Virus record (IMG/VR): IMGVR_UViG_3300009285_000021
Span: 1 to 44,050 of that record
Length of the DNA: 44,050 nt
Direction: 5' to 3' (one strand)
From: a virus
The notes beneath the pieces were generated by a model, which had not been told where the DNA came from, searched no databases, and worked only from the letters and a program-made list of their open reading frames with translations. A program made the translations under genes and the position numbers. How positions within the stretch are numbered: position 1 is the first letter of the stretch; each line of letters opens with the position of its first letter. This document shows, piece after piece, positions 3,946 to 27,754 of this stretch.

Positions 3946-6900
3946 ATGGAAAACTTATTTTCAACGAGAGATACATATTCAGCGAACTTCGGAACGGAGT
4001 TAGCGAAGTCAGACGGTGGGTCAACGCCTGATTTTAAAGTATTTGTTGAGCCGAAGTCGTTTAGTGTTGATAGCTTGGTTGACTGGAACGTAGGAACATT
4101 TAACAATGTAGTAGCAGGAACAAACGGAACATTTGGAACTAACGGGAATATACAATTAGGTATTGGCACAATGTACGGCACATACACGAGTAAAATCTAC
4201 GATAGCGGATTTCATAGTAATTTTAAGCAGTTGAATATGACGGAGTTAAAGACAAATCCGAGTTGGACAAAAGAAACAAATATGGGAGTATTGCCAAGTG
4301 CTGATGGGTGGACATATAATGGCTCTGCACCCGAAGCGACATACGCCAGCGTAGCGGGTGGAATTTTAATAACGGATAGCAATACTATTGGTGGATTAAG
4401 TCAATCATCTTACTATATTGCACCAGCATTTAATAATGCAACGGGATGGACTGTTGAAGCGAAAATAAAAGTAATTTCTTATTCTGGCACACAATTTCAA
4501 CAACAATTAAGAATATCTATAAGGGATGGTGTTTGGTTGGAAAATCTTTTAATTTCTAATTTAGGAATAAAATTAAGTGTTTCTGGTGAAACTTATGCCT
4601 TTGATACAACAGACGCTTTTCATGTTTACAGAATAACAGGAATTGGAACTGTTGTAAAAGTTTATGTAGATGGAATTTTGCGATTGACTGGAACTTTAAG
4701 TTTTGCGTTGGCTTCTGATTATATGGATTTTGGGGATATATCTGCAATAAATGGCGAAAACTCCAAAGCAGAATGGAACTACATTAAATATTCAACCGCA
4801 GGTGCTTATGCTCCTGCTTTTGATAATGACAGTACTTACCCTTTTGAACCCACACAATACCAATTCCGTACAGGCACAGACGTAAGCAGTTGTGATGTGG
4901 CAACATGGAAAGCGGTTGTATCGGGAACAAGACCTGCAATAGATGACGGCGAGTTTTATCAATTCCGCATTGCATTGACAGGGGACGGCACAACATCACC
5001 CGTGGTTGACAAGGTTCAGGGAACGACACAATATAGTTTAGGTGAGCGGTTAATATCAGCACCGGAAGTCAGTCGTAGTTTAGAGAGATTATTTCAGGAA
5101 ACTCAAATCAGCTCAATCGGCATAAACCTTGACAATGCTGATGACTTCTTTAATCCTTTAGGTACAGGGTTGTATGCGGTATCTTCCGTGTATAACAAAA
5201 CAATAGAAATCTGGAAGGGTTTTAAATACGCATGGAACGGATCAACTTGGGGTACAGCCGAGTACATTCCTGCATTTACTGGCTACGTTGACAATATACA
5301 GATAGACGGTAACGGTCGGGCAGTGTTGAACGCAAGGGACAAGGGAAAGTTATTTCATATCCGAACTAGCGAAAAAGTAACAACAACTGGAACTGCGGGC
5401 GGGGCGTATTGGACAAATATTGAAATAGGATTAGCTGTTAGAAAAACGGTTGAACAAGGTGCTGGATTAGGAACTGCTGATTATTATATACAAAGTGGAA
5501 TAGTTAAAGACCATACTTTTGCACATCATTTAGATATAGATTATAGTTATGTGAATACAGGGACGACTGCTTCTATGGTAGTAAAAGACCAAAAGATTTA
5601 TTTTAGTATTGGTACGAATCTTTATGAATGGGATGATTATATTTCTGATAGTCCAAAACTAATATATCAGTTTAATTTACCGGCTCATTCCGCTTGTTCA
5701 GATGGGACATATTTGTATTATATGAAATCAAACGGAAAGAATCCTTGTTACCTTTCCCGATTTGATGGGACAACTGAAACGTTATTAGATACTTTTGGAG
5801 CAAACAGTGCAGGAACGGCGGCATTAAGAACTAATGTTGTCTTTGCGGGAACTGGAATTTATTATGCAATACAACAATTCGGGACTACATCAGGTACGGC
5901 TCATGGCATATTTTCTTATAATTCAATAACGCAAACTCACGAATGGATGTTTCATGTTAATAACGGAATTTATACTGGTGGAAGAGTTGTTGGTTCCGAT
6001 GGAAGATATTTACATGGTTTTGGAATAGGAACAAGCACATATAGACATGTTGTTTATGATACAACTATCGGAACGATAATAGGAACTTATCTTGAAACTG
6101 GAGTTGCTATAAATGAAACTGGGGCTGTATCTGGTGGGTGTAGCGTATCGGGAACAAATATTTATTCCTTTGCACCCGTTTTAAGAGATGTTGAATTTGA
6201 AAAAACAATAGAATTAAGAACATCTGCTGATTATGGGGGAACGGCGATAACTGTTTTTGAAAATGGTACGGTATCTGGCACGATAGATACAACTGGAACT
6301 TCATTTTCAAATACTATTCATGCTATATATGTCCCGCCTAACAATGTTTTAAATTTCAGATCGTCCCGATATTATGCAATACTTGGAACTTCTCAATATT
6401 CTATTGTAACTTATTCAGACGAATATCAAGGACATATTGGAACTTTTGAAACAGGTAATGCCGATTATGTCGCTGATGTTTTGCAAAATCTTGCAAAAGA
6501 TACAAATTATGTTCAGTTTATAGATGAAGCCGGTAAATTTAATTTCGTAAATCGAGATAGTGGAACTGTAATAAGACACTCATTTGATGCTGATGATATT
6601 ATAACTGTGGGATGTGTCAAGGGCGATAATGTTTCTTCTGCTGAAATAATAAATCACATAGTTTGGGGAACAGCAACAGGTACTGTGTCTTATGACGACC
6701 TTCCGTCACAAGGTACTTACGGCGTACAGTCGTTTCAATATCAAAGTAAATATGTATCAAATGGTACGTTAGCAAACGATATTATTTATGGAATGATAAG
6801 AGCCTTTGCTTATCCTAAAGCGGTTATATCGGCAAAGTTGAGATATTATCCTGTTGTTAAGCTTTTCGATGTATGCGGTTTGGATTACTCAAGATTAAAT

Positions 6901-7013: not shown

Positions 7014-7511
7014 ATGATAAAAACAAATCAAAAAGGATCTAATAATTACAATTGGAAGGGTGGGAAAGTAAGTAGGACATGCTTAACGTGTGGAAGTGTA
7101 TTTTATATTTATAAGTCAAGTCTTAATAAAATAAAAAAGGGAGTAAAGGGGAAATATTGTTCTCGTAAATGTTATGGAACTGCTTTATCTAAAAGACAAA
7201 CAGGGGATAAGCATTGGAATTGGAGAGGTGGACTTAGCAAAAATTACACTACAACTTTTGAGTGGAAACAAATAAGATTAAGTATAATAAAAAGAGATAA
7301 TAATAAATGTCGTATTTGCGAAAGTGAAGAAAGATTACAAGTCCATCATATAGTACCATATCGTATAACTCAAGATAACTCTGAGGGAAATTTAATAACA
7401 CTTTGTTTGTCCTGTCACAACAAAGAAGAATGGAGTTATTATAAGAGCAAAAAAGGGCAAATGACCTTTAGTTTTATTAAAGATTGGAGAAGGTTAAATG
7501 CAAAAATATAG
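7014..7511 (+). CDS. HNH homing endonuclease
   Basis: It carries NWKGG/NWRGG repeats and Zn-ribbon CxxC pairs. The HNH core reads CRIC...VHHIVPY...NLITLCLSCHNKEE. Confidence 0.85.
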   Translation: MIKTNQKGSNNYNWKGGKVSRTCLTCGSVFYIYKSSLNKIKKGVKGKYCSRKCYGTALSKRQTGDKHWNWRGGLSKNYTTTFEWKQIRLSIIKRDNNKCRICESEERLQVHHIVPYRITQDNSEGNLITLCLSCHNKEEWSYYKSKKGQMTFSFIKDWRRLNAKI

Positions 7512-8687: not shown

Positions 8688-9362
8688 ATGAAAAAAATAT
8701 TAAGTATACTTTTAGTGACCTTCCTATGCTTGTTAAGTTTAGGGATGACAAAACAATATCAACCAGTAGACCTTGTGGAGTTGTGGAAGTCGGCAGTTAT
8801 GGAAAATCGGCAGTTGAAACAACAAAACTCGGATTTACGTCTACAGATAGCGGAATACCGGTTAGCAGATAAAAACGATAAGATTGCTTTATTCCCTATG
8901 AAATATTATAGAGAGCAGGGATATTTTAAAGCGGACAATCATTATGCAAGAGATCCTGAACACTTTAGAAAGGTTTGGAGTTATTGTCAGAAGTATCAAT
9001 ACTTATTAGGTCCGGAAGTAAGAGAAATATGCAAGAAACAAGATATAGACCCTGTTAAGTTTGCGTTCACGTGGAGCCACAAAGAATCTCACTACTCACC
9101 CTTAGTTGTCAATGTAAACAAAAACGGTACTAGGGACTGGGGAATGAATCAGATAAATGATTGCGTTTGGGATATTCTTTATGTTCAACTACCAGAGAAT
9201 CTAAAGAAGATTAAAAATCCTAAAACAGATACCGAAATTAGTGTTTGCATGTTGTACCTTTGGATGTCAGATAGAACAAAAAATAAAATGTCTTGGTGCT
9301 TTTTAAATGATGAGAGTTGGACGATTTACTGGTTTATCGGGGAGATTGAGAGAAATGGGTAA
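8688..9362 (+). CDS. Secreted or membrane-anchored lytic transglycosylase (SLT domain)
   Basis: The N-terminus is a hydrophobic signal (MKKILSILLVTFLCLLSLG). The SLT-type motifs ES(H)YSP...NGTRDWGMNQIN are present. Confidence 0.7.
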   Translation: MKKILSILLVTFLCLLSLGMTKQYQPVDLVELWKSAVMENRQLKQQNSDLRLQIAEYRLADKNDKIALFPMKYYREQGYFKADNHYARDPEHFRKVWSYCQKYQYLLGPEVREICKKQDIDPVKFAFTWSHKESHYSPLVVNVNKNGTRDWGMNQINDCVWDILYVQLPENLKKIKNPKTDTEISVCMLYLWMSDRTKNKMSWCFLNDESWTIYWFIGEIERNG

Positions 9363-9651
9363 GCGTTTAGAGTATACACCGAACTCAAAGATAAGAGCAA
9401 ACTTACGTCAATTGTTTTTACGTTCTCGTGAGCGTGGGAACGCAATTAAAAGGGATAAATACACCTGTCAATGTTGCGGAAGAAAACAATCAAAGGCAAT
9501 CGGTAAAGAATTTAAAGTACAGGTTCATCATAAGGAAGGCATACTCAACTGGGATAAACTTTTTCTAGCAGTCAGAGAGTATTTACTTTGCAATCCTGAT
9601 TTACTTGAAACACTATGTGAAGAGTGTCATGGCAAAAAGGGGAAACAATGA
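9355..9651 (+). CDS. Small HNH endonuclease
   Basis: Motifs CQCCG...VHHKEG...CEECHGKK. I chose the ATG at 9355 over the track start at 9307 because it minimises overlap with the SLT gene. Confidence 0.7.
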   Translation: MGKRLEYTPNSKIRANLRQLFLRSRERGNAIKRDKYTCQCCGRKQSKAIGKEFKVQVHHKEGILNWDKLFLAVREYLLCNPDLLETLCEECHGKKGKQ

Positions 9652-10765: not shown

Positions 10766-11136
10766 AAAATGTACTGGTTGATAGTGTTGTGATTGAAGGT
10801 CGGGAATATGTGCCAAAGGATAGCGTAAAAAAAATGGCGATTGATTGTGAGGGGAAAAAGTATCAGATAGTCAGGGCGTATGGAGCGGGCGTATTTGCAG
10901 GATATGTCATTGAAAGAAAAGGGCAAGAAGTTGTAATGGTAAAAGCCAGACGTTTATACTATTGGGATGGAGCGTCAAGTTTATCTCAATTGGCAATGGA
11001 GGGAGTTAAAAAACCTCTGAACTGTAAATTTCCTTGCGAAGTTGAAAAAGTAGAATTACTACAGGTTATAGAAATTTTAGATTGTACAGAGGAGGCAAAG
11101 AAAAGTATTCAGGAGGTAAAAGTATGGGAACAGTAA
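10762..11136 (+). CDS. Hypothetical early protein (124 aa)
   Basis: ATGA-coupled ORF. The conserved-looking core is RAYGAGVFAGY...ARRLYYWDGASSLSQLA. I cannot assign a family with certainty. Confidence 0.6.
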   Translation: MKNVLVDSVVIEGREYVPKDSVKKMAIDCEGKKYQIVRAYGAGVFAGYVIERKGQEVVMVKARRLYYWDGASSLSQLAMEGVKKPLNCKFPCEVEKVELLQVIEILDCTEEAKKSIQEVKVWEQ

Positions 11137-11432
11137 AAGATAACGGCGACGGCTACGGCGACGGCTCCGGGAATGGCTCCGGCTACGGCGACGGCTCCGG
11201 GAATGGCTACGGCTCCGGCTACGGTTACGGCTACGGCTCCGGCTACGGCGACGGCTCCGGCTACGGCTACGGCTCCGGCGACGGCGACGGCTACGGCTAC
11301 GGCGACGGCTCCGGCTACGGCTACGGCTACGGCGACGGCTACGGCGACGGCGACGGCTCCGGCTACGGCGACGGCTCCGGCTACGGCGACGGCTACGGCG
11401 ACGGCTCCGGCTACGGCTCCGGGAATGGTTAA
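11124..11432 (+). CDS. Acidic (X-Gly)48 dipeptide-repeat protein, with X = Tyr, Asp, Ser or Asn
   Basis: AGGAGG lies at 11111-11116, 7 nt before the ATG at 11124. The product is MGTVKD followed by 48 perfect X-G dipeptides (19 Y, 13 D, 12 S, 4 N) with no basic residue in the repeat. Confidence 0.6.
   Translation: MGTVKDNGDGYGDGSGNGSGYGDGSGNGYGSGYGYGYGSGYGDGSGYGYGSGDGDGYGYGDGSGYGYGYGDGYGDGDGSGYGDGSGYGDGYGDGSGYGSGNG
11142..11429 (+). repeat. Hexanucleotide tandem array GGC-(TAC/GAC/TCC/AAT-like), visibly GC-rich
   Basis: About 288 nt built from ggctac / ggcgac / ggctcc units, with an occasional gggaat. The composition contrasts sharply with the AT-rich flanks. Confidence 0.95.
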
Positions 11433-11522: not shown

Positions 11523-11729
11523 ATGGCAAAGAAAAAAGAGTTGAGAGGTAGACCTAAGAAACAAAATAACTTAGTTTCGGTAACAAGCAATATAGCGGTA
11601 GAAGAAAGGGAAGGTGTGGCAAGAATATCGGCATTAAATCGTGCAAGTATGTCGGGAGTGATACGAGAGGCAATAGTGGCACATTTAATCAAATTCGGGA
11701 TGATGTATGACAATCGGGAGGGAAGATAA
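11523..11729 (+). CDS. Ribbon-helix-helix (CopG/Arc-like) DNA-binding protein
   Basis: 68 aa with a basic N-terminus (KKKELRGRPKK), then a beta-strand (VSVTSNIAV) and two helices (ARISALNRASMSGVIREAIVAHL). Confidence 0.6.
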   Translation: MAKKKELRGRPKKQNNLVSVTSNIAVEEREGVARISALNRASMSGVIREAIVAHLIKFGMMYDNREGR

Positions 11730-12847
11730 TGACAGATATAAACGCATTGGCAGTTGTAGACCAGCAACAGATAAATAATCTCACAATAAAGGAAGTTAAG
11801 GAGTTATGGTGTCCTTTAGTTTCAGACAAGGAATTCGGATTGTTTATAGGAATATGTAAATCTTTCGGGTTGAATCCATTTAAACGAGAGGTTTATATAA
11901 TAAAATATTCGGCAAGTTCTCCGGCTTCAATTGTTGTTGGGTATGAGGTATATCTCAAACGTGCAGATCGTACAGGAAAACTTGATGGGTGGAACGTTGT
12001 AATAGTAGATTCAGATACGGACAACGAAAGAGCTGTTATAACTATCTTTCGCAAGGATTTTAAAAATCCGTTTATCTGGGAGTGCTACAAAAAAGAAGTA
12101 GCGAAACAACAGGCAAACTGGAAATCAATGCCGATATTCATGCTTAAAAAGGTAGCAATCGGACAGGGTTTTCGTTTAGCGTTTCCTGATGAAATGGGTG
12201 GACTTCCGTATGTACAAGAGGAAATAGTACAAGAGGAACATACAGCGAAACCGTCTTTTACGCAACACAAAACAACGGCAACGGATATAACTCCAGAACC
12301 GAAACAAGAAGTCAAAGAAGATATCAACGCTCCTGTTTGCAATGATGAACAAATTGCCACTATCAACGCTCTTGTTGCTGTAAGTCCGAAATCAAAAGAA
12401 GTAGGTGACTGGATATGTTCGGCGTACAAGGTGGATTTTTTCGCCCAGTTGTCTTATGACAAAGCGGAAAAGATTATAGCTATTCTTGAGCAAAAACAAA
12501 AAGAATTGAAAGACAAGATGACTACCGAAGCAGAAGCAAAGAAAGAAGAACCTAAATCCGAAGAACCATCTGTAGACCCATCAGAGGATCAAGGACACAA
12601 GGAAAAACCTTCCACACCGAAAGGCGATAAAGTAATGTCTGATAAGCAAAAGTCAACAATAGAAAAAATGCTTAAGCATTACAAAGACAAGGCAGAAGGC
12701 AAAAAGGCATTGCTTGTTGTCGGCGAGGGTGGCAAGAGTTTTGAAACTTTGACAATAGGACAGGCGAGTAATATCATCAAGAAACTCGGTGAGCAAATTA
12801 AGAAGGATACGGAAGCGAGGAAACAAGATGACGCAAATAATCCTTAA
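11729..12847 (+). CDS. recT: RecT/Bet-family single-strand annealing protein with an acidic/lysine-rich C-terminal extension
   Basis: The N-terminal 170 aa carry GLNPFKREVYIIKY...VVGYEVYLKRADRTGKLDGW...MLKKVAIGQGFRLAFPDE, typical of RecT/Bet. An exonuclease gene follows. Confidence 0.75.
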   Translation: MTDINALAVVDQQQINNLTIKEVKELWCPLVSDKEFGLFIGICKSFGLNPFKREVYIIKYSASSPASIVVGYEVYLKRADRTGKLDGWNVVIVDSDTDNERAVITIFRKDFKNPFIWECYKKEVAKQQANWKSMPIFMLKKVAIGQGFRLAFPDEMGGLPYVQEEIVQEEHTAKPSFTQHKTTATDITPEPKQEVKEDINAPVCNDEQIATINALVAVSPKSKEVGDWICSAYKVDFFAQLSYDKAEKIIAILEQKQKELKDKMTTEAEAKKEEPKSEEPSVDPSEDQGHKEKPSTPKGDKVMSDKQKSTIEKMLKHYKDKAEGKKALLVVGEGGKSFETLTIGQASNIIKKLGEQIKKDTEARKQDDANNP

Positions 12848-13475
12848 TAAAGACAAGCACGAATACACAGTGGATAAGGTTGTATATCCCTCCGTAAGTC
12901 AGATACTTGCGGAGTTAGGATTTATCAATCTAAGGGCTGTACCAACTCATGCACTTGAAGAAGGTCGGGCAAGGGGTACTGAAGTCCATGCAATCTGTGA
13001 AAGTTTTGATCGGGGAATATTGGCAGTTGAAACAATAGATGAAAGGTTGGTAGGTTATTTTAAGTCATGGCTATTGTTTGTTAAAGAATATAAGCCAGAG
13101 TTTTTAGAGATTGAAAAAATGGTGTTTAGCAAAAGTTGGGGATATTGTGGGTGCATTGACAGGGTGGCTCGTATCAACGGAAAATTATACATAGTTGATA
13201 TTAAAACAAGCCAGTACAAATCCCCTTCTCACGAGATACAAACTGCTCTTTATAAAACCGCTTATGAAGAGTTTACCAAAAACAAGATAAACGGATTAAA
13301 GACCGGTCGTTGGATTATTGTATTATCTCCGGAAGGAAAAATGGCAAAGGTAGTTGAACACGATAAATTAACAGACTTCACAACAGCAATATCGGCGGTG
13401 ATAGTTTATAACTGGAAGAAACGGAATAAACTTACGGCAGATTTAGATTATAATGCGGAGTTATTCTCATTTTAG
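12828..13475 (+). CDS. PD-(D/E)XK recombination exonuclease (YqaJ/Cas4-like fold)
   Basis: It begins H.YTVDG-like and carries RGTEVH, then CIDRV...YIVDIKTS (the D..(D/E)xK motif). The ATG at 12828 has a GAGGAA RBS. Confidence 0.7.
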   Translation: MTQIILNKDKHEYTVDKVVYPSVSQILAELGFINLRAVPTHALEEGRARGTEVHAICESFDRGILAVETIDERLVGYFKSWLLFVKEYKPEFLEIEKMVFSKSWGYCGCIDRVARINGKLYIVDIKTSQYKSPSHEIQTALYKTAYEEFTKNKINGLKTGRWIIVLSPEGKMAKVVEHDKLTDFTTAISAVIVYNWKKRNKLTADLDYNAELFSF

Positions 13476-13484
13476 GAGGAAACA

Positions 13485-14165
13485 ATGTCAAATGAAACAG
13501 TAAGTGTAGCACCTATAGCAAGTAATGTAGCAGATGAAGCAACAAAGACAGCAGAAGTAGCATTGACACAGGCAAGGGGTATTGTCATAGCAAACGTAGA
13601 ACAATATACCAATGCCGGTACGGAGTTGCTAAAGGTTAAGAAGTTTTTAAAGGACTTAGAGGTCGAACGGAAAAAAATCACGGATCCGCTAACAAAGGCA
13701 AAAGAAGCTGTAATGGCGTTCTTCAATACTCCGAAAGACAACGCAACAAAGGCAATGAACATAATAGCCGGTGCAATGCAAACTTATGATGATAAGAAAG
13801 CGGAAGAAGCCCGAAAGGAAAATGCACGTCTATCGGAAATAGCAAGAAAAGAATCGGAGAAGTTATCGGAAAAAGCACGGAAAGCAGAAGAGTCTGGAAA
13901 TTTGGAAAAAGCGGAAGAACTTAAAAGACAGGCTTTAATGAAAGAAACAATAGTGCCTTCCGTATCTGCTGAACCTGTTAAGATTGCCGGATTAGCGTCC
14001 AGAGAAAATTGGACTTACGAAATTACGGATATTAACCTTGTCCCTCGTGAGTACCTTTGTGCTGATGAAAAAAAGATAGGTGCAGTAATCCGTGCTACAA
14101 AAGGTACTTTGTCTATACCTGGAATTAAGGCAATAAAAGAAACTAAAATAGGTGGAAGTCGGTAA
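13485..14165 (+). CDS. Coiled-coil recombination/replication-module protein of unknown function
   Basis: 226-aa ORF with a GGAGGA RBS. The centre is Lys/Glu-rich. Family not assigned. Confidence 0.5.
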   Translation: MSNETVSVAPIASNVADEATKTAEVALTQARGIVIANVEQYTNAGTELLKVKKFLKDLEVERKKITDPLTKAKEAVMAFFNTPKDNATKAMNIIAGAMQTYDDKKAEEARKENARLSEIARKESEKLSEKARKAEESGNLEKAEELKRQALMKETIVPSVSAEPVKIAGLASRENWTYEITDINLVPREYLCADEKKIGAVIRATKGTLSIPGIKAIKETKIGGSR

Positions 14166-14182
14166 ATAATTCTATTTTAGTA

Positions 14183-14211
14183 TTGACAATCTAGGAGTTA
14201 TCGTGTATACT
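14183..14211 (+). promoter_or_regulatory. Consensus-like promoter (TTGACA-17-TATACT) firing into the origin region
   Basis: TTGACA lies at 14183-14188, followed by a 17-nt spacer ending in gtg and TATACT at 14206-14211. Confidence 0.7.
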
Positions 14212-14259
14212 GTACATAACAACGGAGAACAACGAACATGCAAAAAATCTTAACAATAT

Positions 14260-14334
14260 ATAGCGCTGGTGGCTGTTTACAGCTGGGTCTTCATTTCCTT
14301 CCAGAAATGTTCGTTACCCTCCGGCCAGCGCTAT
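14260..14334 (+). other. Long-range perfect 10-bp inverted repeat (atagcgctgg ... ccagcgctat) enclosing 55 nt
   Basis: 14260-14269 is the exact reverse complement of 14325-14334. The element lies about 45 nt downstream of the predicted start site of the 14183 promoter. Confidence 0.6.
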
Positions 14335-14549
14335 TAAAAAATCCATATATAGTATATAAAAGTTATCCACAATGTGTTAATAACTCTTGTGGATATCCTG
14401 TGGATAACTATTACAGGGTAAGTTATCCACAGATACTAAGAGTTATCCACATCTGTTCTAAAGTTATCCACATACTTATAAACAGGGTTGTCCACATGAT
14501 AACGCCTTGCATTATAAACAATAGTGCCACTTATCCACAAAAAACAGCC

Positions 14550-14570
14550 CTACTACTACTACTACTACTA
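14550..14570. repeat. (CTA)7 trinucleotide array, equal to 3'-GAT-5' x7 on the complementary strand. It is a DnaA-trio candidate.
   Basis: Seven perfect CTA units begin 10 nt after the DnaA box at 14531-14539. They are preceded by the small GC patch cagccc and followed by an AT-rich tract. Confidence 0.6.
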
Positions 14571-14602
14571 TTTATATAAAGCTTTAGTAATTATAGTAAA
14601 AG
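14571..14602. other. AT-rich candidate DNA-unwinding element
   Basis: The sequence tttatataaagctttagtaattatagtaaaag lies between the trio array and the inverted DnaA box at 14613. Confidence 0.45.
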
Positions 14603-14638
14603 GGCATTAATCTGTGGATAATAAAAAAGGAATATAAA

Positions 14639-14749
14639 ATGTCAGATAAAAAAACAATAGCAGAAATGTTGGAAAGTATAATACGAAAGATAGATGCTAA
14701 ATTTCAAGAAGAAGAGAAACAAAAGCAACAACAAAAGGACAACCAATGA
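14639..14749 (+). CDS. 36-aa charged helical mini-protein, too short to be listed in the ORF track
   Basis: Read by hand: MSDKKTIAEMLESIIRKIDAKFQEEEKQKQQQKDNQ. It has an AAGGA RBS and ends in an ATGA overlap with the next ORF. Confidence 0.4.
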   Translation: MSDKKTIAEMLESIIRKIDAKFQEEEKQKQQQKDNQ

Positions 14750-14901
14750 AAATGAAATGTACTCTACCAGACAATGAGAAGGATAGCCTAAACTGTCCAA
14801 CGTGCGACCATAACAAGGAACACGATAAAAATCATAACTGTGAACACGCATGTTGCTTCCATAGAGGGTCTCAATGCTTAGAAGTAAAGGATGAAAAATG
14901 A
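14746..14901 (+). CDS. 51-aa Cys/His-rich mini-protein, too short to be listed in the ORF track
   Basis: Read by hand: MKMKCTLPDNEKDSLNCPTCDHNKEHDKNHNCEHACCFHRGSQCLEVKDEK. It is ATGA-coupled at both ends. Confidence 0.45.
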   Translation: MKMKCTLPDNEKDSLNCPTCDHNKEHDKNHNCEHACCFHRGSQCLEVKDEK

Positions 14902-15218
14902 ACAACTTAGAAAAGATAAATGTGTCTGCCGTAATAAGGGGTAGAAAGTCAAACAATCCTATTGTTGTAGAGAAGTTGTCAGCAATGACAGGGGTATCTG
15001 ACCGAGTATGCAAGAAATACGTTCAGGAACTACGTCAAGAAGGTTTGCCTATAGCCGGTGATGAAGACGGTTATTTCTGGGCGGAGAATCCGGCAGAGTT
15101 GGATCATGTGATAAACATAATAAAAGCCCATATCCACAGCAGACAGGAAACAATACGAAGTTTAGAGCGTACCAGGCTGGCAATGCTACATGATAAGCAG
15201 ATGTCAAGATTACTGTAA
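14898..15218 (+). CDS. Winged-helix DNA-binding protein (regulator or origin-associated)
   Basis: The HTH_11/DeoR-like segment is IVVEKLSAMTGVSDRVCKKYVQELRQEGLPI. It is the first substantial gene after the origin-like region. Confidence 0.55.
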   Translation: MNNLEKINVSAVIRGRKSNNPIVVEKLSAMTGVSDRVCKKYVQELRQEGLPIAGDEDGYFWAENPAELDHVINIIKAHIHSRQETIRSLERTRLAMLHDKQMSRLL

Positions 15219-15234
15219 AACAACCGGAGGTCAA

Positions 15235-15564
15235 ATGACAAAAGAAAACAGTATCAGGGCTGAAGTAAGGAAGCACGATGATGAAACAGAAGGAATTGTA
15301 AAAGGGCTATACTATGTTGAATTATTTTACAATGGGCATAGCATAGTAGATGATTGCATTTGTGGATTAGAAAAAAATAGAGCCGAACTCATTTGCTCAC
15401 GTATCAACAACGAGCCAGTGAAAAGGATAGAAAAGAAAATTGAAGAGATGATTAAGGAAGTAGAGTTTGCACAAAAGCAAGATTTTACATATCACGGAGA
15501 AAAATGTTATGCCGTAGACAAGCTTGAACAACTCAAATCCTACATTACAAAAGGAGAGGAATAA
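15235..15564 (+). CDS. Hypothetical protein (109 aa)
   Basis: The ATG at 15235 has a GGAGG RBS. I preferred it to the track start at 15190. Confidence 0.5.
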   Translation: MTKENSIRAEVRKHDDETEGIVKGLYYVELFYNGHSIVDDCICGLEKNRAELICSRINNEPVKRIEKKIEEMIKEVEFAQKQDFTYHGEKCYAVDKLEQLKSYITKGEE

Positions 15565-15713
15565 TGAAAACAAAGTATTGTGCAGATTGCGGAAGTCAAT
15601 GCGACTATGATTTTGCATATAAGGTAAAAGGAACTGAATGGGATTTTATTTGTTTGCAGTGCGTTAAGGACAAACCTGATATTAGAATAATTCACCCAGA
15701 AGAAGATAGATAA
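15564..15713 (+). CDS. 49-aa Zn-ribbon mini-protein, too short to be listed in the ORF track
   Basis: Read by hand: MKTKYCADCGSQC...FICLQCVKDK. It starts at a TAATG overlap. Confidence 0.4.
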   Translation: MKTKYCADCGSQCDYDFAYKVKGTEWDFICLQCVKDKPDIRIIHPEEDR

Positions 15714-15744
15714 AAACAATGCCTAAAACAACAGGAGAAAACAA

Positions 15745-16539
15745 ATGAGTGAAAAAAATTGTGAGAGTTGTGGTGAATTTGGGTATGAGGATTGTAAATG
15801 GTTTAATATTACAAGTGGAATAAGACATTGTTTTTTTACATTGGACAGCGGAAAAAGAAAGTATGAACCCAATCCCGAAGTAAAACAAGATATGCCTAAG
15901 ACAGTTCAAGAGTGTAAGGATTGCAAGGAAATACACATATGCCATTTGTATACGGATAAGGATTGTCACTGCAAAGATAAGGCAGAGCTACAAAAATACG
16001 GATTAGAAAAGCCAGAAGTAAAACAAGAGAAAGAGAGTAGTTATGAGGAGAAGAAGGACAAGTTAATTGAGAAGTTTATAAATCTTGAATATGATACAGA
16101 AGAACTTGTAAACGCAATAGAGCCAATTTGCGTAGAGGAAGGGAAAAGACGGGAACGAGAAACTAATAGAGATTTAATGAAGATAGGAAAAACTTATCAG
16201 GAGAAAGTAAAAGCTATTATGTTAAAGCAGATAGTCCAATTTGATGACGGAACTGCATACAAAAGACAAGGGATAGAGGATATTGAAATACTTGCTTTAA
16301 AAGAAGGGAAAAGAATAGCAATGGCGAAAAAAGGAATAGACTTTTTAGGAATTGATTTAGTTAAAGAATTAAAGGAAAAGATATTAGAAGAAGGCGAAAC
16401 AAGAGGAGTAGCAAAAGGATATAAGTTAGGGTTGGAGAAGGCAAAAGAGATAGCGAACAAATGCGACAAAGACTACGGTGAAGAAGGATTTTATAATTTT
16501 TTCGTAGCATTAGAAAAGTCAATAGAGGAGGAAAGATGA
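15745..16539 (+). CDS. Hypothetical protein with a Cys-rich N-terminus and a Lys/Glu coiled-coil C-terminus
   Basis: 264-aa ORF with a GGAGAA RBS. It contains several CxxC and CxC pairs. Confidence 0.6.
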   Translation: MSEKNCESCGEFGYEDCKWFNITSGIRHCFFTLDSGKRKYEPNPEVKQDMPKTVQECKDCKEIHICHLYTDKDCHCKDKAELQKYGLEKPEVKQEKESSYEEKKDKLIEKFINLEYDTEELVNAIEPICVEEGKRRERETNRDLMKIGKTYQEKVKAIMLKQIVQFDDGTAYKRQGIEDIEILALKEGKRIAMAKKGIDFLGIDLVKELKEKILEEGETRGVAKGYKLGLEKAKEIANKCDKDYGEEGFYNFFVALEKSIEEER

Positions 16540-18313: not shown

Positions 18314-18612
18314 AGTTTAGGGTGTGGGATAAGGTAAAAAAATATTGGTGTGCGTTTGATATTGGCGATATAACTGAAGGTGATATGAACGATATAAGAA
18401 ATGATGTAATTGTTTTGCAATACACGGGATTAAAAGACAAGAACGGAAAAGAAATATACGAATTTATGGAAATAAATAAAAAATACGAAGTTAATTATGT
18501 ACCCCCTAAATATGTCTTGACAAATATATCAAATGGGGATATAATGGATATATCGGAGGTGGAAAAAAATGAAAACGGAATTGAGGTTACTAAGGAATAC
18601 GCAAAAATATAG
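18298..18612 (+). CDS. YopX-family protein
   Basis: MQREIKFRVWDK...VLQYTGLKDKNGKEIYE is the hallmark YopX N-terminal pattern. There is an AAGGAG RBS before the ATG at 18298. Confidence 0.75.
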   Translation: MQREIKFRVWDKVKKYWCAFDIGDITEGDMNDIRNDVIVLQYTGLKDKNGKEIYEFMEINKKYEVNYVPPKYVLTNISNGDIMDISEVEKNENGIEVTKEYAKI

Positions 18613-19072
18613 GAAAACCCCCAAGGGAGTTTTAACTAATATTTATACTCATCAAAAATCAAGGATGTTGGTCTCTTATTCGAGAGAACAATTGCTAAAT
18701 AGATTCTTAACCGATTCAAGATTTATAAGGTTATTTTCTGAATGGGCAAAGAAAAATTACCACAAACAATATAAGCCCACTATTGACAGAATTGATTGTT
18801 TGAAGCACTATACTTTAGATAATATCCATTGTTTGACTTGGGCGGAAAATAGATATAAGCAACGCATGGAAACAAAAAGAATAAGAGCAAAGAAAGTATA
18901 TCAGATTATGGGGGATAAAATTATAAAAATATATGATTCACAATACAAAGCAGTTAGAGAAACAGATATTAGCCAAAGCAATATGTCTATGTGTCTTAAT
19001 GGTCACAGACAATACTGTGGGGGATATAAATGGAGCTACGAAAACCCAGAACTACTAACGGATGAAAAATGA
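18569..19072 (+). CDS. HNH_3-type homing endonuclease with a C-terminal DNA-binding module
   Basis: Motifs IDRIDCLKHYTLDNIHCLTWAEN and YKAVRETDISQSNMSMCLNG....GGYKWSY. The RBS is GGAGGTGG. Confidence 0.7.
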   Translation: MKTELRLLRNTQKYRKTPKGVLTNIYTHQKSRMLVSYSREQLLNRFLTDSRFIRLFSEWAKKNYHKQYKPTIDRIDCLKHYTLDNIHCLTWAENRYKQRMETKRIRAKKVYQIMGDKIIKIYDSQYKAVRETDISQSNMSMCLNGHRQYCGGYKWSYENPELLTDEK

Positions 19073-19100: not shown

Positions 19101-19886
19101 TTGAAATTAGAAGAAATGATAAACAAAGTACATTGTGCGGAATGCTTGGAGTTTATGAAACAGATACCCGATAAGTCAATAGATATGGTCCTAACTTCTC
19201 CACCTTATGATAATTTAAGAGATTATAGTGGTTATACTTTTGATTTTGAAGGTATAGCAAAAGAATTATTTAGAATTATTAAAGAGGGTGGTGTTTGTGT
19301 TTGGATTGTAGGAGATGCAACAGTTGACGGAAGCGAAACGGGAACAAGTTTTAAACAAGCATTGTATTTTAAAGAGATAGGATTTAGATTACACGATACA
19401 ATGATATATCAAAAAAACAGTTATCCATTCCCTCCTACAAATAGATATTTTGGGGTGTTTGAATATATGTTTATTTTATCTAAAGGTTCTCCAAAAACAA
19501 CAAACATGATAAAAGTCAGAACTATAGGTGCAAAACACAAATCATCAACACAAAGACAATCAGACGGTTCTACAACTTCAATGAAATATGAAATGGGAAA
19601 AGATGAGAGGGTTAGGGATAATGTTTGGGTTTACGACGTTGGTTATGGGAAATCTTCAAATGATAAATCCGTTTTTTTTCACCCCGCAACATTTCCCGAA
19701 AAATTAGCGAAAGAGCATATAATATCTTGGTCCGATAAAGACGATTTAGTTTTAGATTGTTTTAATGGTAGTGGAACAACATCTTTATGCTGTAAAAATT
19801 TCGGTAGAAAGTTTATCGGGATTGAAATTAGTCCTGAATATTGCAAAATCGCAGAAGACCGTCTAAGGCAGGAGGTATTGTTTTGA
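19101..19886 (+). CDS. Orphan DNA methyltransferase (beta-class N4-cytosine/N6-adenine, SPPY type)
   Basis: Motif IV is DMVLTSPPY near the N-terminus, and motif I is DCFNGSGTT near the C-terminus. No partner restriction enzyme is visible. The start is either the TTG at 19101 or the ATG at 19116. Confidence 0.85.
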   Translation: MKLEEMINKVHCAECLEFMKQIPDKSIDMVLTSPPYDNLRDYSGYTFDFEGIAKELFRIIKEGGVCVWIVGDATVDGSETGTSFKQALYFKEIGFRLHDTMIYQKNSYPFPPTNRYFGVFEYMFILSKGSPKTTNMIKVRTIGAKHKSSTQRQSDGSTTSMKYEMGKDERVRDNVWVYDVGYGKSSNDKSVFFHPATFPEKLAKEHIISWSDKDDLVLDCFNGSGTTSLCCKNFGRKFIGIEISPEYCKIAEDRLRQEVLF

Positions 19887-20410: not shown

Positions 20411-21094
20411 ATGATTAAAACCTGTCCAACATGTAAAAAAGAATTCCATTCTGTTTTTAAACATTGCTCTGTTAAATGTTCAAAAAGTATTATTCATCAA
20501 GCAACAAGACGAAAAATGAGTTTAGCAAAAAAAGGTAAAATGCCAAAATTCATACCCGATAATCACGGAAGACATCACTCTTTAGAAACAATAGAGAAAA
20601 TGAGAAAATCGAGCTACTGGAAAGGAAAACATCTTCCAAAAGAAATGGTACAGAGGATGAAAGGTAGAGTTGTAACAGATGAAACAAGAAGAAAAATAGG
20701 GTTATCTTCAAAGGGGAGAAGACACACAGAAGAGCAAAAAAGAAAAATAGGTTTAAAATCTATTGGTAACAAATATGGGTGGAAAGGCGGATTGACTCCC
20801 GTATACACACTGATTAGGTGTAGTTTGAAATATTCAGAATGGCGACAGAAGGTATTTACAAGGGATATGTTTACTTGCATGGATTGTGGAGATAAAACAG
20901 GTGGTAATTTAGAAGCACATCACGTAAAATCTTTTTCAGTTTTAGTAAAAGAGTCAGAAACTTATTTTCCATTATTAAACCTTTACGATTCATCTATGTT
21001 GTATAGCCCTCTTTGGGATATTGACAACGGTAAGACATTGTGCGAGAAATGTCATAGAAAATATTTTAAAAATACAAGTAAGGTGAGGCAATGA
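20411..21094 (+). CDS. HNH homing endonuclease with NUMOD3-like repeats
   Basis: Three repeats of the H(S/T)xExxxK(M/I) type are present. The HNH core reads CMDCG...EAHHVKSF...NGKTLCEKCH. It is a paralogue of 23355-24062. Confidence 0.85.
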   Translation: MIKTCPTCKKEFHSVFKHCSVKCSKSIIHQATRRKMSLAKKGKMPKFIPDNHGRHHSLETIEKMRKSSYWKGKHLPKEMVQRMKGRVVTDETRRKIGLSSKGRRHTEEQKRKIGLKSIGNKYGWKGGLTPVYTLIRCSLKYSEWRQKVFTRDMFTCMDCGDKTGGNLEAHHVKSFSVLVKESETYFPLLNLYDSSMLYSPLWDIDNGKTLCEKCHRKYFKNTSKVRQ

Positions 21095-22585: not shown

Positions 22586-23358
22586 GAATAATATCAATAC
22601 ACTTACTAAACGAAGAGGGTGGGTTAAAAATAGCATATGAGAAAGATAATCCGTTTGAGAAACCAACGAAACAAGAATTAAGCATACTGAAAGACGGGTT
22701 GAACAATATGCTACCTAATGAAGATGTTACTGCGGATTTTTACGACAAGGATTATTTTGAAGGCAATAGTGTTAAGTCAGGACTTTCGGACTTTGACAAT
22801 AGAAGCAAGGCATATGCGGAAGAACACGCAAGGGACAGAATACAAAAGATAATTGAAATGATGGAGAACCTGCCTGACTGTCAATCTGATTTTAAAATAC
22901 TTGAGATAGGCTGTGCCTTTGGTCATACAGTGGACGCTTTACGTTTAATGGGGTATAGTGCTTACGGAGTTGATATTTCGGAATATGCTATAAACAAATA
23001 CAAACAAGATTATAAGCACGTAGGGAACTTTAAGGATTTTAGATTAGAGAGTATTCCGGCACAAGGAATAAGTTTAGCTTGTTATGAAACATTTAATTTG
23101 ATTTATGGATTTAATTTAATGGAGCATATACCTGAATTAGATTTAAGAATGTTTATAGAAAACTTACGGACTAACCTTAATGGTAACGGATTAGCATTTT
23201 TTACGATTGATCCAGTATTCGGGGCTGACAATAGTCATTGTACTATTCACAGCCGGAAATGGTGGGACAAGCTGTTTGCAGAACACGGATTTTCGCCTCA
23301 CAAGGAAGGTACTGAAATGTTTGAGAAAATAAACGGTCATTGTTATAGGAAAATATGA
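22579..23358 (+). CDS. Class I SAM-dependent methyltransferase
   Basis: Motif I is ILEIGCAFGHT, followed by an acidic post-I residue (GVDIS). Non-ATG start (TTG or GTG at 22579/22582). Confidence 0.75.
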   Translation: MVRIISIHLLNEEGGLKIAYEKDNPFEKPTKQELSILKDGLNNMLPNEDVTADFYDKDYFEGNSVKSGLSDFDNRSKAYAEEHARDRIQKIIEMMENLPDCQSDFKILEIGCAFGHTVDALRLMGYSAYGVDISEYAINKYKQDYKHVGNFKDFRLESIPAQGISLACYETFNLIYGFNLMEHIPELDLRMFIENLRTNLNGNGLAFFTIDPVFGADNSHCTIHSRKWWDKLFAEHGFSPHKEGTEMFEKINGHCYRKI

Positions 23359-24062
23359 TAGAAAGAAAATGTTTAATATGTAATAAAGTATTTAAAGTAA
23401 AGCCATCCAGAATAAAAGATGGAGGTGGCAAATATTGCAGTAATACATGTAGATATAACGGGAAAAAGAAAGAACATCACTGGAATTGGACAGGAGGAAA
23501 ACATAATATAAGGTATTGTAAGGCGTGTGGGAAAAAAATATGTTTAACAAATAGTCAAATAAAAAAAGGTATGGGTAATTTTTGTTCTTATACGTGTTCG
23601 GCTTCTGATAGGACCGGAATAAAAAATCCTAATTGGCGTGGAGGTGGAACTCTAAAAACTTGTAAAAGTTGCGGAAAAGAGTTTATGGTTAGAAGAGGTA
23701 GCAATCATCAATGTTGCAGTAAAGAATGTATTAGTGGAAAATATCATCCAAACTGGAAAGGTGGAAATACACCAATAATTATTAAAATTAGAATGTCTAC
23801 AAAATATAAACACTGGCGACAACAAGTATTTATTCGTGATAACTTTACCTGTCAAGATTGCGGTCAAAGAGGTGGCTATTTAGAATCACATCATCATAAA
23901 AAGACTTTCACCGATATATTGGAAGAGGTAAAAAAGAATTTGCCTTTAATGGAATTGTATGATGGTGCAATGGTATACGAGCCATTATGGGATATTGATA
24001 ATGGTAAAACACTTTGTAATAAATGCCACAATAAAACGAAAAAAGGAAGAAAATGCGTATAG
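23355..24062 (+). CDS. HNH homing endonuclease
   Basis: It has repeated Zn-ribbons and NW(T/R/K)GG motifs. The HNH core reads CQDCG...ESHHHKK...NGKTLCNKCH. It sits between the methyltransferase and the radical SAM gene. Confidence 0.85.
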   Translation: MIERKCLICNKVFKVKPSRIKDGGGKYCSNTCRYNGKKKEHHWNWTGGKHNIRYCKACGKKICLTNSQIKKGMGNFCSYTCSASDRTGIKNPNWRGGGTLKTCKSCGKEFMVRRGSNHQCCSKECISGKYHPNWKGGNTPIIIKIRMSTKYKHWRQQVFIRDNFTCQDCGQRGGYLESHHHKKTFTDILEEVKKNLPLMELYDGAMVYEPLWDIDNGKTLCNKCHNKTKKGRKCV

Positions 24063-25306
24063 CTCTTGTTAATCCCCCTTGCTATGGAGAGAATTTTCAC
24101 ATTTCCGGAATTTCGGGCTGTCGTTGGAGTTCTTTAAGTCCAAACACAATAAACAAAGAACCGTTAAAAACCCAAAAGGATTATTATTATGCAATATTCC
24201 CATTTCCATTAGCTTTTGCTTCGACGATATTGAAAAGTCAGGGACATACAGCAAGAGTTTTTGATTTTCTAAATCTTAATATTTCCTATGGGGAAATGTA
24301 TGAAATTTTAAAAGAATTTAACCCAGATAAAATTTATCTTGAAAGTTGCAATGTTTCGTACAATCAAGATATTCAGATATTAGAGAACATAAAAGAGTTT
24401 ATGAATATTCCTGTATGTATGGTCGGAAGTGTGGTAAGACAAAAGAAAGGGGACATACCGAAAGGGATTGAGTACATTGAAGGCAATTACTTACAGACAT
24501 TAGGCGGTGAGAATTACGTTGATTTGTTGACAATGCCGGATCGTGATGATTCGGTACTACTTTACAATGACTATCATTCATTTGCACATATTATCAAAAA
24601 ACCTCAATTACAAGTATGGTCGAGTATAGGCTGTAAGTTTAATTGTAGCTTCTGCTCCTGGCGGTGGAACGTTTATGACGGGAAGGTGGCATACAGAAAG
24701 ATTGAACATATTCGGGACGAAATAAAGTATGCTGTTGAGAAGTGGGGTATTAAGTCTGTGTTACTAGATGATGATACGGTGAACATGAATGATGACAGAA
24801 CAAAAGAACTCGTTAAAATGATAAATAAGGATTTAAAAGGTTTACAATTTTCAGCAATGGTCAGAGCGGACTCGTGCAGTTTAGATACGTTTAAAGCAAT
24901 GAAGGACGCGGGGTTTGTTAGCTTAAAGGTCGGAGTTGAAACGTTCAGCCCGTCCGTACTCAAGAAAATAGGCAAGGGACTTGAATCGGCGGAGTTGCTT
25001 GAGCGGATATTGAAGTTATGGGATATGGGGTACTTCATGTATCTTTCTACCATGTCACACATTTTAGGCGAAACAGAACAAGAAAGAGAAGAAACGAATA
25101 TTATACTAAAGGAACTGGGAACGCTCGGAATAAAATATCAGCGTCCAATGGCGGTGCCTCTTCCCGGTACAAAAATGGGCAAGGAATTTCAGGAGTGGGA
25201 GTTGCGTAATTTTGGGGATGTTATACCTGACTTTGATTATGGCAAGTACGACGGGTCAGGGGAGTTAATGAAAAGGATAATGGCGTATTCAAAGGGGAAG
25301 CAATGA
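24053..25306 (+). CDS. B12-binding-domain radical SAM enzyme (class B)
   Basis: The N-terminus reads RIALVNPP, typical of the cobalamin-binding domain. The CX3CX2C motif is IGCKFNCSFCSW. An Elp3-like core follows (SLKVGVETFS). Confidence 0.8.
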   Translation: MRIALVNPPCYGENFHISGISGCRWSSLSPNTINKEPLKTQKDYYYAIFPFPLAFASTILKSQGHTARVFDFLNLNISYGEMYEILKEFNPDKIYLESCNVSYNQDIQILENIKEFMNIPVCMVGSVVRQKKGDIPKGIEYIEGNYLQTLGGENYVDLLTMPDRDDSVLLYNDYHSFAHIIKKPQLQVWSSIGCKFNCSFCSWRWNVYDGKVAYRKIEHIRDEIKYAVEKWGIKSVLLDDDTVNMNDDRTKELVKMINKDLKGLQFSAMVRADSCSLDTFKAMKDAGFVSLKVGVETFSPSVLKKIGKGLESAELLERILKLWDMGYFMYLSTMSHILGETEQEREETNIILKELGTLGIKYQRPMAVPLPGTKMGKEFQEWELRNFGDVIPDFDYGKYDGSGELMKRIMAYSKGKQ

Positions 25307-26031
25307 TAAAGTTTAATGGTGTAAAAATAAATGTTACTAAGTTTCCAGATAAAACATCACAAGTGTGGAAACTGACAAACCTTGTATCATCAGGCAATAA
25401 TGCTGTGGATTGGTATTTTGATTACGAGGGGGAAATAGTTTTGTTGGCTCAATTAAAATTTCTCTTGGATAGTATGAAAATAATACCAACACTTTACATC
25501 CATTACTTGCCTTATGGCAGACAAGATAAAGAAGTTTCAAATGATTCTACTTTTGCATTATTCCCTTTTGCTAAACTTCTCAATGTTCTGGAATTTAAAG
25601 CTATAAATATATTAGATCCGCATAGTTGGAAAGCAACAACACTTATAAATAATTCAAAGGCAATATACAAATACGAATATTTGCAAAGTGTAATAAAGGA
25701 TAGGAATATAGATGTTTTATGTTTTCCTGACAAGGGAGCATTTGAGAAATACAGTACGTTGCCTGTCTATTCGAGCTTACCATTTATTGTTGGTGAAAAA
25801 GTACGGGAGCAATCTACTGGGAATATAACTCATTATAATATATCTGGCAAAGTTAAAGATAAAAATGTTCTTATCGTTGATGACATTTGTGACGGTGGAG
25901 CAACGTTTATTATTATTGCGAAAAGTATTAAAGCTTTAGGGTCAAAAGAGATTGATTTGTTTGTAACTCACGGACTATTTACTAAAGGCAAAGACATATT
26001 ACTCAACGCAGGTATATCTAAAATATTTTAG
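25303..26031 (+). CDS. Ribose-phosphate pyrophosphokinase-like enzyme (Prs homologue; candidate ADPR-pyrophosphate synthetase Adps of NARP1)
   Basis: Motifs YLPYGRQD, ILDPHS and VLIVDDICDGGATF (the PRPP/ribose-phosphate binding loop). At 242 aa it is shorter than housekeeping Prs. Confidence 0.75.
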   Translation: MIKFNGVKINVTKFPDKTSQVWKLTNLVSSGNNAVDWYFDYEGEIVLLAQLKFLLDSMKIIPTLYIHYLPYGRQDKEVSNDSTFALFPFAKLLNVLEFKAINILDPHSWKATTLINNSKAIYKYEYLQSVIKDRNIDVLCFPDKGAFEKYSTLPVYSSLPFIVGEKVREQSTGNITHYNISGKVKDKNVLIVDDICDGGATFIIIAKSIKALGSKEIDLFVTHGLFTKGKDILLNAGISKIF

Positions 26032-26039
26032 GAGGGGAT

Positions 26040-27524: not shown

Positions 27525-27754
27525 AGAAGAAACATTTAATAATAGGTGTAGGCGATCTTGTAGACAAGTTGTCAATAGCCAACGCAAAAATAGGACGGCT
27601 CGAAACAAAGGCAAGAAGTGAGAATATATCAAATGAGGAGAGAGGTAAGCTAACATTACAGATAAGACAGATAAATGATAATGACCGTGTTGTAGCCCGT
27701 AACGCCTTAAACATACTATTCGGGAAAGATTACTGGGAGGAAAAAGACAAGTGA
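27521..27754 (+). CDS. 77-aa helical protein of unknown function, coupled at both ends
   Basis: ATGA overlap with the NAMPT-like gene and GTGA overlap with the radical SAM gene. It contains no Cys. The sequence includes DLVDKLSIANAKIGRLE... Confidence 0.5.
   Translation: MKKKHLIIGVGDLVDKLSIANAKIGRLETKARSENISNEERGKLTLQIRQINDNDRVVARNALNILFGKDYWEEKDK

Follow-up and report, generated by a model that had tools for sequence, protein, structure and literature searches.

The stretch of DNA analysed here, referred to throughout as the window, is IMG/VR virus record IMGVR_UViG_3300009285_000021 over its full 44,050 nt. It is the complete, circularly assembled genome of a tailed phage from a groundwater metagenome; a 77-nt terminal repeat closes it to a 43,973-bp circle, and every gene lies on the plus strand. 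Our subject is an element at 14.36-14.62 kb, densely packed with DnaA boxes, that we consider a candidate replication origin. It occupies a 473-nt gap, between the gene at 13485-14165 and a small gene at 14639, in which the source pipelines call no gene. Once an uncalled open reading frame (ORF) at 14238-14579 is set aside, this gap is the largest non-coding stretch of the genome. The junctions around the element are the same in the ENA, Logan and JGI assemblies.

A DnaA-box cluster and two convergent half-modules

The first-pass annotation had listed nine TTATCCACA-type sites, seven of them perfect and two with one mismatch, and all were recovered in place and in orientation within 259 bp. 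The perfect boxes start at 14363 (+), 14399 (-), 14423 (+), 14443 (+), 14464 (+), 14531 (+) and 14613 (-), and those with a single mismatch at 14388 (-, ATATCCACA) and 14488 (+, TTGTCCACA). The seven perfect sites are the sole exact matches to TTATCCACA in the window, where base composition predicts 0.59. An upstream cluster on both strands (14363-14496) comprises the sites at 14363+, 14388-, 14399-, 14423+, 14443+, 14464+ and 14488+; its four head-to-tail boxes, spaced by 20, 21 and 24 nt, point toward the unwinding module described below. The cluster boxes have the flank (A/G)AGTTATCCACA in common. Across the whole element, which sits mid-genome, box spacings are 11, 20, 21, 24 and 43 nt, and a repeat search of 14100-14700 revealed no repeat families besides the DnaA boxes.

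The last plus-strand box, a perfect TTATCCACA at 14531-14539, is the left anchor of the module. It is followed on the same strand by the 10-nt spacer AAAAACAGCC (14540-14549), whose GCC end is the GC patch that had been described there. Seven perfect CTA units come next, as first reported, at 14550-14570, and read as seven 3'-GAT-5' DnaA-trios on the minus strand. This (CTA)7 array is the sole trinucleotide repeat that Tandem Repeats Finder reports in the window, with a chance expectation of ~1e-7. Its plus strand also carries overlapping 5'-TnnT-3' motifs, in the form of six overlapping TACT units. A second, degenerate box was sought in the left spacer and rejected; since the best alignment has five mismatches, above the published limit of four, the left module is of the single-box type. 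The motif cluster as a whole is non-random and far above chance.

A 32-nt A+T tract had been noted at 14571-14602. The tract is there, but it is not pure A+T (27 of 32 positions, or 84%), and its distal part, 14585-14602, is better taken as another trio-like array, on the opposite strand. Between the two arrays lies a 14-bp A+T core, TTTATATAAAGCTT (14571-14584), which contains the palindrome TTTATATAAA. Of all 50-bp duplex windows in the genome, ranked by nearest-neighbour energy, the one at 14551-14600 falls within the least stable 0.08%. The right array reads CTT TTA CTA TAA TTA CTA on the minus strand, that is, 3'-GAA AAT GAT ATT AAT GAT-5' on the plus strand, which bears the trios; five of its six units have the central trio base, three of them consecutively, and four of the six fit (C/T)TA. 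Its trio score is attained in 0.06% of the genome's 42-nt windows and, among shuffled sequences, in 0.4% (mononucleotide) and 2% (dinucleotide). Beyond it, on the minus strand, come the spacer GATTAATGCC (14603-14612), which matches the left spacer in its 10-nt length and GCC end, and a perfect inverted box (14613-14621). This inverted box had been recorded as a site after the A+T tract. Its presence is not in doubt, but we read it as the anchor of a second box-spacer-trio half-module, convergent with the first across the 14-bp core, that the first-pass annotation overlooked. The two anchor boxes span 91 nt, and a repeat finder pairs 14531-14567 with 14585-14621 as a 37-nt imperfect inverted repeat.

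In the search rules published for the basal unwinding system (BUS) of bacterial origins, a box with at most two mismatches is followed, after a spacer of 0-16 bp, by at least three trios with a central adenine; the commonest spacer is 13 bp long and may hold a weak second box and ~4 bp of G+C, 3'-GAT-5' is the trio that occurs most often, and strand separation in vitro needs the upstream box only (PMC8287927). The earlier proposal, that a DnaA box, GC patch, trios and an AT-rich tract here make up a module of this bacterial type, agrees with every published sequence feature. Both anchor boxes are perfect, and both spacers are within the length range and GCC-ended. The left arm consists of seven 3'-GAT-5' units and the right arm has three consecutive central-A units, or five of six overall. 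Boxes and trios are oriented relative to one another as at chromosomal dnaA-oriC-dnaN loci, and unstable A+T-rich DNA is present beyond the trios (14551-14600). The location is not that of an oriC: the replicon carrying the element is a phage of 43,973 bp, which has genes for terminase, portal, capsid, tail and lysis and no DnaA motif.

Occurrence in bacterial, viral and metagenomic sequences

A scan of bacterial genomes, one per species, with the pattern TTATCCACA-N4-20-(CTA)4 gave at least 120 matches. Among the 120 listed, 55 have dnaA upstream on the same strand, which is the classic dnaA-origin-dnaN layout. The distance from the DnaA domain-IV motif to the box is 190-600 bp in 54 of the 120 and ~1,040 bp in one; two further matches have a dnaA motif elsewhere, either downstream or on the other strand. 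The seven perfect boxes of the phage element equal or exceed the count in ~87% of the dnaA-adjacent origin regions among these listed matches, and its seven CTA units exceed the maximum of six in 136 comparison loci (the 120 bacterial matches listed and 16 viral ones). When the element was aligned to the bacterial origins of the sampled set, boxes and trios matched and there was no further homology. A captured host oriC finds no support within that set. The suggestion that the phage mimics the origin of its host is likewise unsupported in the sense of a copy, as no oriC in the set matches beyond the motifs.

In four bacterial contigs, the main box-(CTA)4 module is faced by an inverted box that is itself followed by trio-like units. 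The clearest cases are two Ktedonobacteraceae metagenome-assembled genomes (L080 and L089); in two from Chloroflexia (L103 and L107), the trio-like units after the inverted box are shorter. None of the four has a dnaA motif in the stretch searched. The twin form may also occur on some chromosomes or prophages.

The counts that follow were obtained with exact patterns (a perfect box and four perfect CTA units) and are lower bounds, and the contigs are partly interrelated. Scanning phage databases for a box plus (CTA)n architecture had been proposed as a check, and the oriented single module was found in 16 IMG/VR contigs, 15 of them distinct. At least four boxes lie within 400 bp in 14 of the 16. 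Three wrong-orientation controls returned 1, 5 (2 distinct) and 1 loci, all of them single boxes outside any cluster. The IMG/VR carriers encode RecT-like proteins, large terminase and other phage families; no DnaA motif was found in them, and they have no protein in common with the window. A BLAST search of the element against 50,697 phage records gave no match at E = 1e-5 and motif-level matches only at E = 10; those to the unwinding half were discarded as chance similarity in Bacillus phage coding DNA.

A twin scan of metagenome contigs, in which a box, (CTA)4, 15-45 nt and an inverted box were required in succession, returned 42 contigs with 35 distinct cores, one of which is that of the window's own phage. 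Within 16 nt after the inverted box, at least two consecutive (C/T)TA units are present in 24 of the 35 cores and at least three in 14; full symmetry is seen in two. From box to box, the cores measure 91 nt in 13 of the 35 (the window's phage included), 80 nt in nine and 88 nt in five. Eleven of the 91-nt cores form a lineage whose members keep both boxes, an A-rich spacer and (CTA)5 unchanged and differ in the centre. Phage markers occur on at least 13 twin contigs, with PHROGs assignments to endolysin, holin, tail collar fibre and virion structural protein. The window and L194, L203, L204 and L184 have the same upstream layout, in which inverted boxes come first, direct boxes next and the module last, and in L198 the twin element sits in a 2-kb gap onto which the genes on either side converge. 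Two of the cores (L171 and L195) are dnaA-origin-dnaN loci, in which the inverted box is present and the right-arm trios are absent. On these patterns, the element is not unique and belongs to a recurrent class in uncultured phages.

Some of the twin contigs have further features of their own. Many of those in the series L165-L206 share a protein of ~190 aa starting MAKV(K/D/T)GPLFSL (1131-1712 in L198, 446-1024 in L203), which has no PHROG match, adjoins lysis and tail genes, and may mark an undescribed phage group. In L173 (Ga0193950_1000054, 5700-6400, on a 38.9-kb contig), an extreme case, 27 DnaA boxes surround a box-(CTA)5-inverted-box core, some of them in 11 or more tandem copies of the 12-nt unit TGTGGATAAGTC; the ORFs of this contig are bacterial-looking, and by eye resemble histidine-biosynthesis and monooxygenase enzymes.

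Genomic setting and replication genes

Directly upstream of the element lies a recombination module on the plus strand (11729-14165), with PHROGs assignments for its called genes. It encodes a RecT-like annealase (11729-12847, Pfam RecT), a PD-(D/E)XK exonuclease (12789-13475, Pfam PDDEXK_1) and a 226-aa companion protein (13485-14165). The first small gene downstream (14639-14749, +), called in L019 and L020, has AAAGGAA ahead of its start and encodes a 36-aa protein with no PHROG or Pfam match.

Between the recombination module and the first box, a sigma-70-type promoter, TTGACA-17-TATACT (14183-14211, +), matches 11 of 12 consensus positions and is the best match in 13000-16000. The near-consensus promoter that had been described as reading into the element is, to that extent, real. 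It is probably an ordinary operon promoter and not one made for the element, because relative L023, which has no DnaA element, carries TTGACA-17-TATAAT at the equivalent position after the homologous gene. Downstream of the promoter, a G+C-richer structured leader (14260-14334, +) has the stem ATAGCGCTGG/CCAGCGCTAT and inner hairpins, corresponding to inverted repeats I13 and I3, and no T-run follows it. The RNA fold of 14217-14350 has an energy of -32.1 kcal/mol (z = -3.0). An Rfam search of the leader returned no family, only sub-threshold hairpin-type matches.

The ORF at 14238-14579 has 113 codons and a possible GGAG ribosome-binding site 10 nt upstream. It has no homologue among 5.8 billion proteins and was not called by gene callers, and on these grounds the coding reading was rejected. 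An open frame through the element is expected, because the plus-strand boxes contain no stop in any plus-strand frame.

Among the relatives found, L022/L023 is the closest; it runs collinear with the window between ~6.9 kb and 14,165, and its protein neighbouring the element's position is 64% identical. After the neighbour gene, L022/L023 have two genes (159 and 120 aa) and then a weak homologue of a 106-aa winged-helix protein; in the window, this place is taken by the DnaA element and two tiny ORFs, followed by the 106-aa winged-helix protein itself (14898-15218). The N-terminus of the 159-aa protein, at 1094-1573 in L023, resembles by eye the N-domains of phage replisome organisers. This impression found no support in PHROGs or Pfam and is a tentative lead. 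In a more distant relative, L027, a gene matching PHROG families annotated as replication initiation protein (E = 4e-13) lies ~750 bp downstream of the same neighbour. Synteny among relatives of the 226-aa protein extends up to 14165, and none of those examined has the box cluster. The slot fits an origin, since it lies beside recombination genes and is swapped in relatives for genes that include, in one of them, an initiator.

The first reading had recognised no initiator, helicase, loader, primase or polymerase in the genome, and the same held when any sizeable ORF was searched against PHROGs and Pfam. ORFs without assigned function were compared with PHROGs, Pfam and PDB sequences, and no replication protein was found. 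Nor did an initiator-plus-iteron arrangement emerge, as no initiator family of PHROGs or Pfam is present in the neighbouring or sizeable ORFs.

The remainder of the genome is that of a tailed phage. PHROGs and Pfam recognise a large terminase, portal, protease, major head and tail genes and an M15-type endolysin, together with DNA methyltransferases, at least five HNH endonucleases and two radical-SAM proteins. HNH-type genes are scattered over the 44 kb (7014-7511, 9307-9651, 18569-19072, 20411-21094 and 23355-24062). An auxiliary block at 24053-29669 contains the two radical-SAM genes, a glycosyltransferase-like protein and an NAD salvage pair, the phage encoding both nicotinamide phosphoribosyltransferase and phosphoribosyl pyrophosphate synthase; HNH endonucleases and methyltransferases lie on both sides of this block. 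Just upstream of the RecT gene and of a 68-aa protein, which looks by eye like a ribbon-helix-helix protein and has no PHROG or Pfam match, the region 11082-11432 holds ~23 copies of the 12-nt unit ACGGCTACGGCT (repeat at 11143-11422). It is open in three frames, one of which would give a low-complexity protein rich in Gly, Tyr, Asp and Ser (GDGSGYGYGYG...). The most A+T-rich part of the genome, at 27% G+C around 42-43 kb, is coding and not intergenic. The A+T-rich region at 42.3-44 kb was ruled out as an alternative origin, as it corresponds to a 678-codon ORF across the circle junction (42312-44050 and on to ~372), which ORF lists of the linear window miss. A tRNA scan of the phage genome for clues to the host found none, and no prophage relative was identified.

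A putative origin, its alternatives and known systems

We consider the 14.36-14.62 kb element to be probably a theta-type replication origin of the phage, run by host DnaA. Several lines of sequence evidence lead to this reading. The motifs are non-random, follow the BUS rules and have the chromosomal orientation; the single module is orientation-specific in viral contigs, and the twin form is recurrent. The core is easily melted, the slot is origin-like, no phage replication protein is recognised, and the ORF that spans the region has no homologue.

In the mechanism we envisage, DnaA-ATP would fill the high-affinity boxes, and DnaA oligomers would grow inward from the anchor boxes at 14531 (+) and 14613 (-). 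These would engage the trio arrays on opposite strands, seven 3'-GAT-5' units on the minus strand and 3'-(G/A)AT-5'-like repeats on the plus strand, and would stretch and open the ~50-bp, very unstable core. The host's own loader would then load the host helicase, and the host replisome would copy the genome; transcription from the 14183 promoter may assist the opening. After the first rounds, the adjacent RecT/exonuclease module would probably switch replication to recombination-driven concatemer synthesis. For staphylococcal phages, a recombinase requirement in replication is documented (PMC5499656). As a side effect, the seven perfect boxes on each new copy would also draw DnaA off the host origin. 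We infer all of these steps, from DnaA binding, unwinding and helicase loading to the recombination switch and the titration side effect.

More tentatively, and with rather less confidence than we would need to assert it, we suggest that the twin BUS may be an undescribed class of phage origin. Here, mirror-image modules at 91, 88 or 80 bp would place DnaA on both strands of one bubble and would allow symmetric, DnaA-only opening and two-sided helicase loading with no phage initiator.

A number of points weigh against an origin at this locus. Cumulative GC skew on the circle, a check that had been proposed, can be computed and rises steadily, without a turning point, and the AT skew is monotonic too; because all genes are on one strand the skew is uninformative, and it neither supports nor locates an origin. 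Control by host DnaA seems a poor fit for a phage replication burst unless a second mode takes over. The position of the boxes in an operon 5' leader makes a regulatory role possible, and an initiator or loader could be hidden among the more than 30 small ORFs without assigned function. The right-arm array is imperfect, with a central T on the minus strand in five of six units, and its dinucleotide-shuffle p of ~0.02 is modest. Close relatives do not have the element and offer no direct conservation test of this copy.

Other explanations were weighed against the same evidence. That the cluster mainly soaks up or inactivates host DnaA, blocking rounds at the host origin in a take-over of the host, is compatible with every sequence feature of the boxes. 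Their number is at or above that in most dnaA-adjacent origin regions among the bacterial matches listed, and box clusters outside oriC are known to modulate initiation (PMC3245932). We nevertheless regard a sink as unlikely. It requires boxes alone, whereas here a complete unwinding-type module is attached, and perfect trios, equal GCC-ended spacers, an unstable core and the fixed distances of 91, 88 or 80 nt are kept across unrelated phage contigs. This conservation of trios, spacers, core and box distance points to single-strand engagement and unwinding, and titration of DnaA would more probably be a by-product than the principal function. It is also quite unlikely, in our view, that the boxes between the 14183 promoter and the 14639 gene form a DnaA-controlled operator that tunes the operon to the replication state of the host. 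The geometry of promoter and leader and the structured leader just upstream of the boxes would suit such a role, and DnaA is known to act as a transcription factor at clusters of its boxes (PMC8203912 and PMC3245932). The other twin carriers, however, do not have the element in a 5' leader, that of L198 being between converging genes; trios, unstable core and mirror symmetry have no obvious function in a roadblock; and L023 has its consensus-type promoter in the same place without boxes.

The element might instead be a non-replicative tether that anchors the incoming or replicating genome to membrane-bound DnaA, as proposed for T5-like phages, whose conserved sets of DnaA boxes have been argued not to be origins (bioRxiv 10.1101/866236). 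We think this highly improbable: the T5 sets are pairs 3 bp apart, within inverted repeats of the terminal repeats and without trios, whereas the head-to-tail boxes of the window are 20-24 nt apart, mid-genome, and end in a trio/AT module. We give almost no credence to chance, to a coding sequence, or to a chimeric assembly that took in part of a bacterial origin. The 113-codon ORF with its possible ribosome-binding site does span the region, and the sequence is a metagenome assembly; yet that ORF has no homologue, was left uncalled by the source pipelines and is open as stop-free boxes would lead one to expect. A chimera is contradicted by the identical junctions in three assemblies and by the lack of extended homology to any oriC sampled, and chance by the same architecture in dozens of other phage contigs.

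The first-pass annotation knew of no DnaA-trio in a phage, and our full-text literature search, whose coverage leaves out most papers in subscription journals, found neither a phage DnaA-trio nor a phage BUS. The unwinding module is already known in bacteria; what would be new is its presence as the presumptive origin of a tailed phage, together with the idealised trio array and the convergent twin form with fixed spacing. To our knowledge, the general view is that phages of such a size supply an initiator or helicase loader of their own. If the origin reading is right, a 44-kb tailed phage would start replication with the host's chromosomal initiator alone. Infection would then be tied to the DnaA-ATP state of the host, competition with the host origin would be predicted, and so would a simple determinant of host range and resistance. 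If the twin-BUS suggestion is also right, a sizeable group of uncultured phages would depend wholly on the host initiator and would provide a natural, minimal and symmetric substrate for asking how bacterial origins load their second helicase. The perfect (CTA)7 and the mirror module could serve as natural, idealised substrates for DnaA opening and for helicase access to both strands. The box-spacer-trio geometry, especially in its convergent, fixed-spacing form, could also flag origins in phages without recognisable replication genes.

Among known systems, datA of Escherichia coli and the DnaA-box clusters of Bacillus subtilis lower free DnaA. The phage element resembles datA and the oriC-distal B. 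subtilis clusters in its dense, high-affinity boxes outside a chromosomal origin. Unlike the element, they are defined by boxes (with IHF at datA) and have no trio array or unwinding core. The origins of the plasmid prophage P1 (oriR) and of the plasmids pSC101, F and RK2 recruit host DnaA via consensus boxes beside an A+T-rich region and depend on an element-encoded Rep protein and iterons; the phage, in contrast, has no recognised Rep-like gene and no repeats other than DnaA boxes. The injection-stop sets of T5-like phages are likewise conserved, ordered DnaA boxes in non-coding phage DNA, but as pairs 3 bp apart in terminal-repeat inverted repeats, with no trios (bioRxiv 10.1101/866236), they have a geometry that the window does not share. 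Closer in appearance are the head-to-tail arrays of perfect DnaA boxes in non-coding DNA of Lactococcus phage 949 (L151, NC_015263.1, ~19140-19520) and the whole 949 group, and of Microviridae from pig faeces (L152, MG945529.1, 972-1053). A full-text literature search found no paper on these arrays. They have the (A/G)AGTTATCCACA flank, 20-22 nt phasing and A+T-rich sequence afterwards, but their last box has no clear (CTA)n trio array after it; phage 949 continues, beyond the array, with a long field of ~50-nt repeats.

In B. subtilis, the DnaD recognition element (DRE) consists of repeated 5'-TnnT-3' motifs, which DnaD recognises on the strand opposite the trios (PMC10201434). The (CTA)7 strand of the phage carries 5'-TnnT-3' motifs too, a likeness that is relevant only if the host uses DnaD; the difference is that, in the phage, the mirror-image DnaA module could serve the second strand instead. 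The nearest counterpart is the BUS of bacterial oriC, with its DnaA boxes and DnaA-trios, which is reportedly the work of Richardson in 2016 and 2019 and of Pelliciari in 2021 and 2023. The two are alike in the consensus box, the short spacer with a G+C patch, the 3'-GAT-5' trios, the A+T-rich DNA beyond, the extra upstream boxes and the orientation. They differ in that the phage element is part of the genome of a tailed phage, where neither dnaA nor dnaN is close by, has a trio array that is perfect and longer (seven units against a maximum of six in the comparison set), and possesses a second, convergent half-module, whose right-arm trios are absent from the dnaA-adjacent loci L171 and L195.

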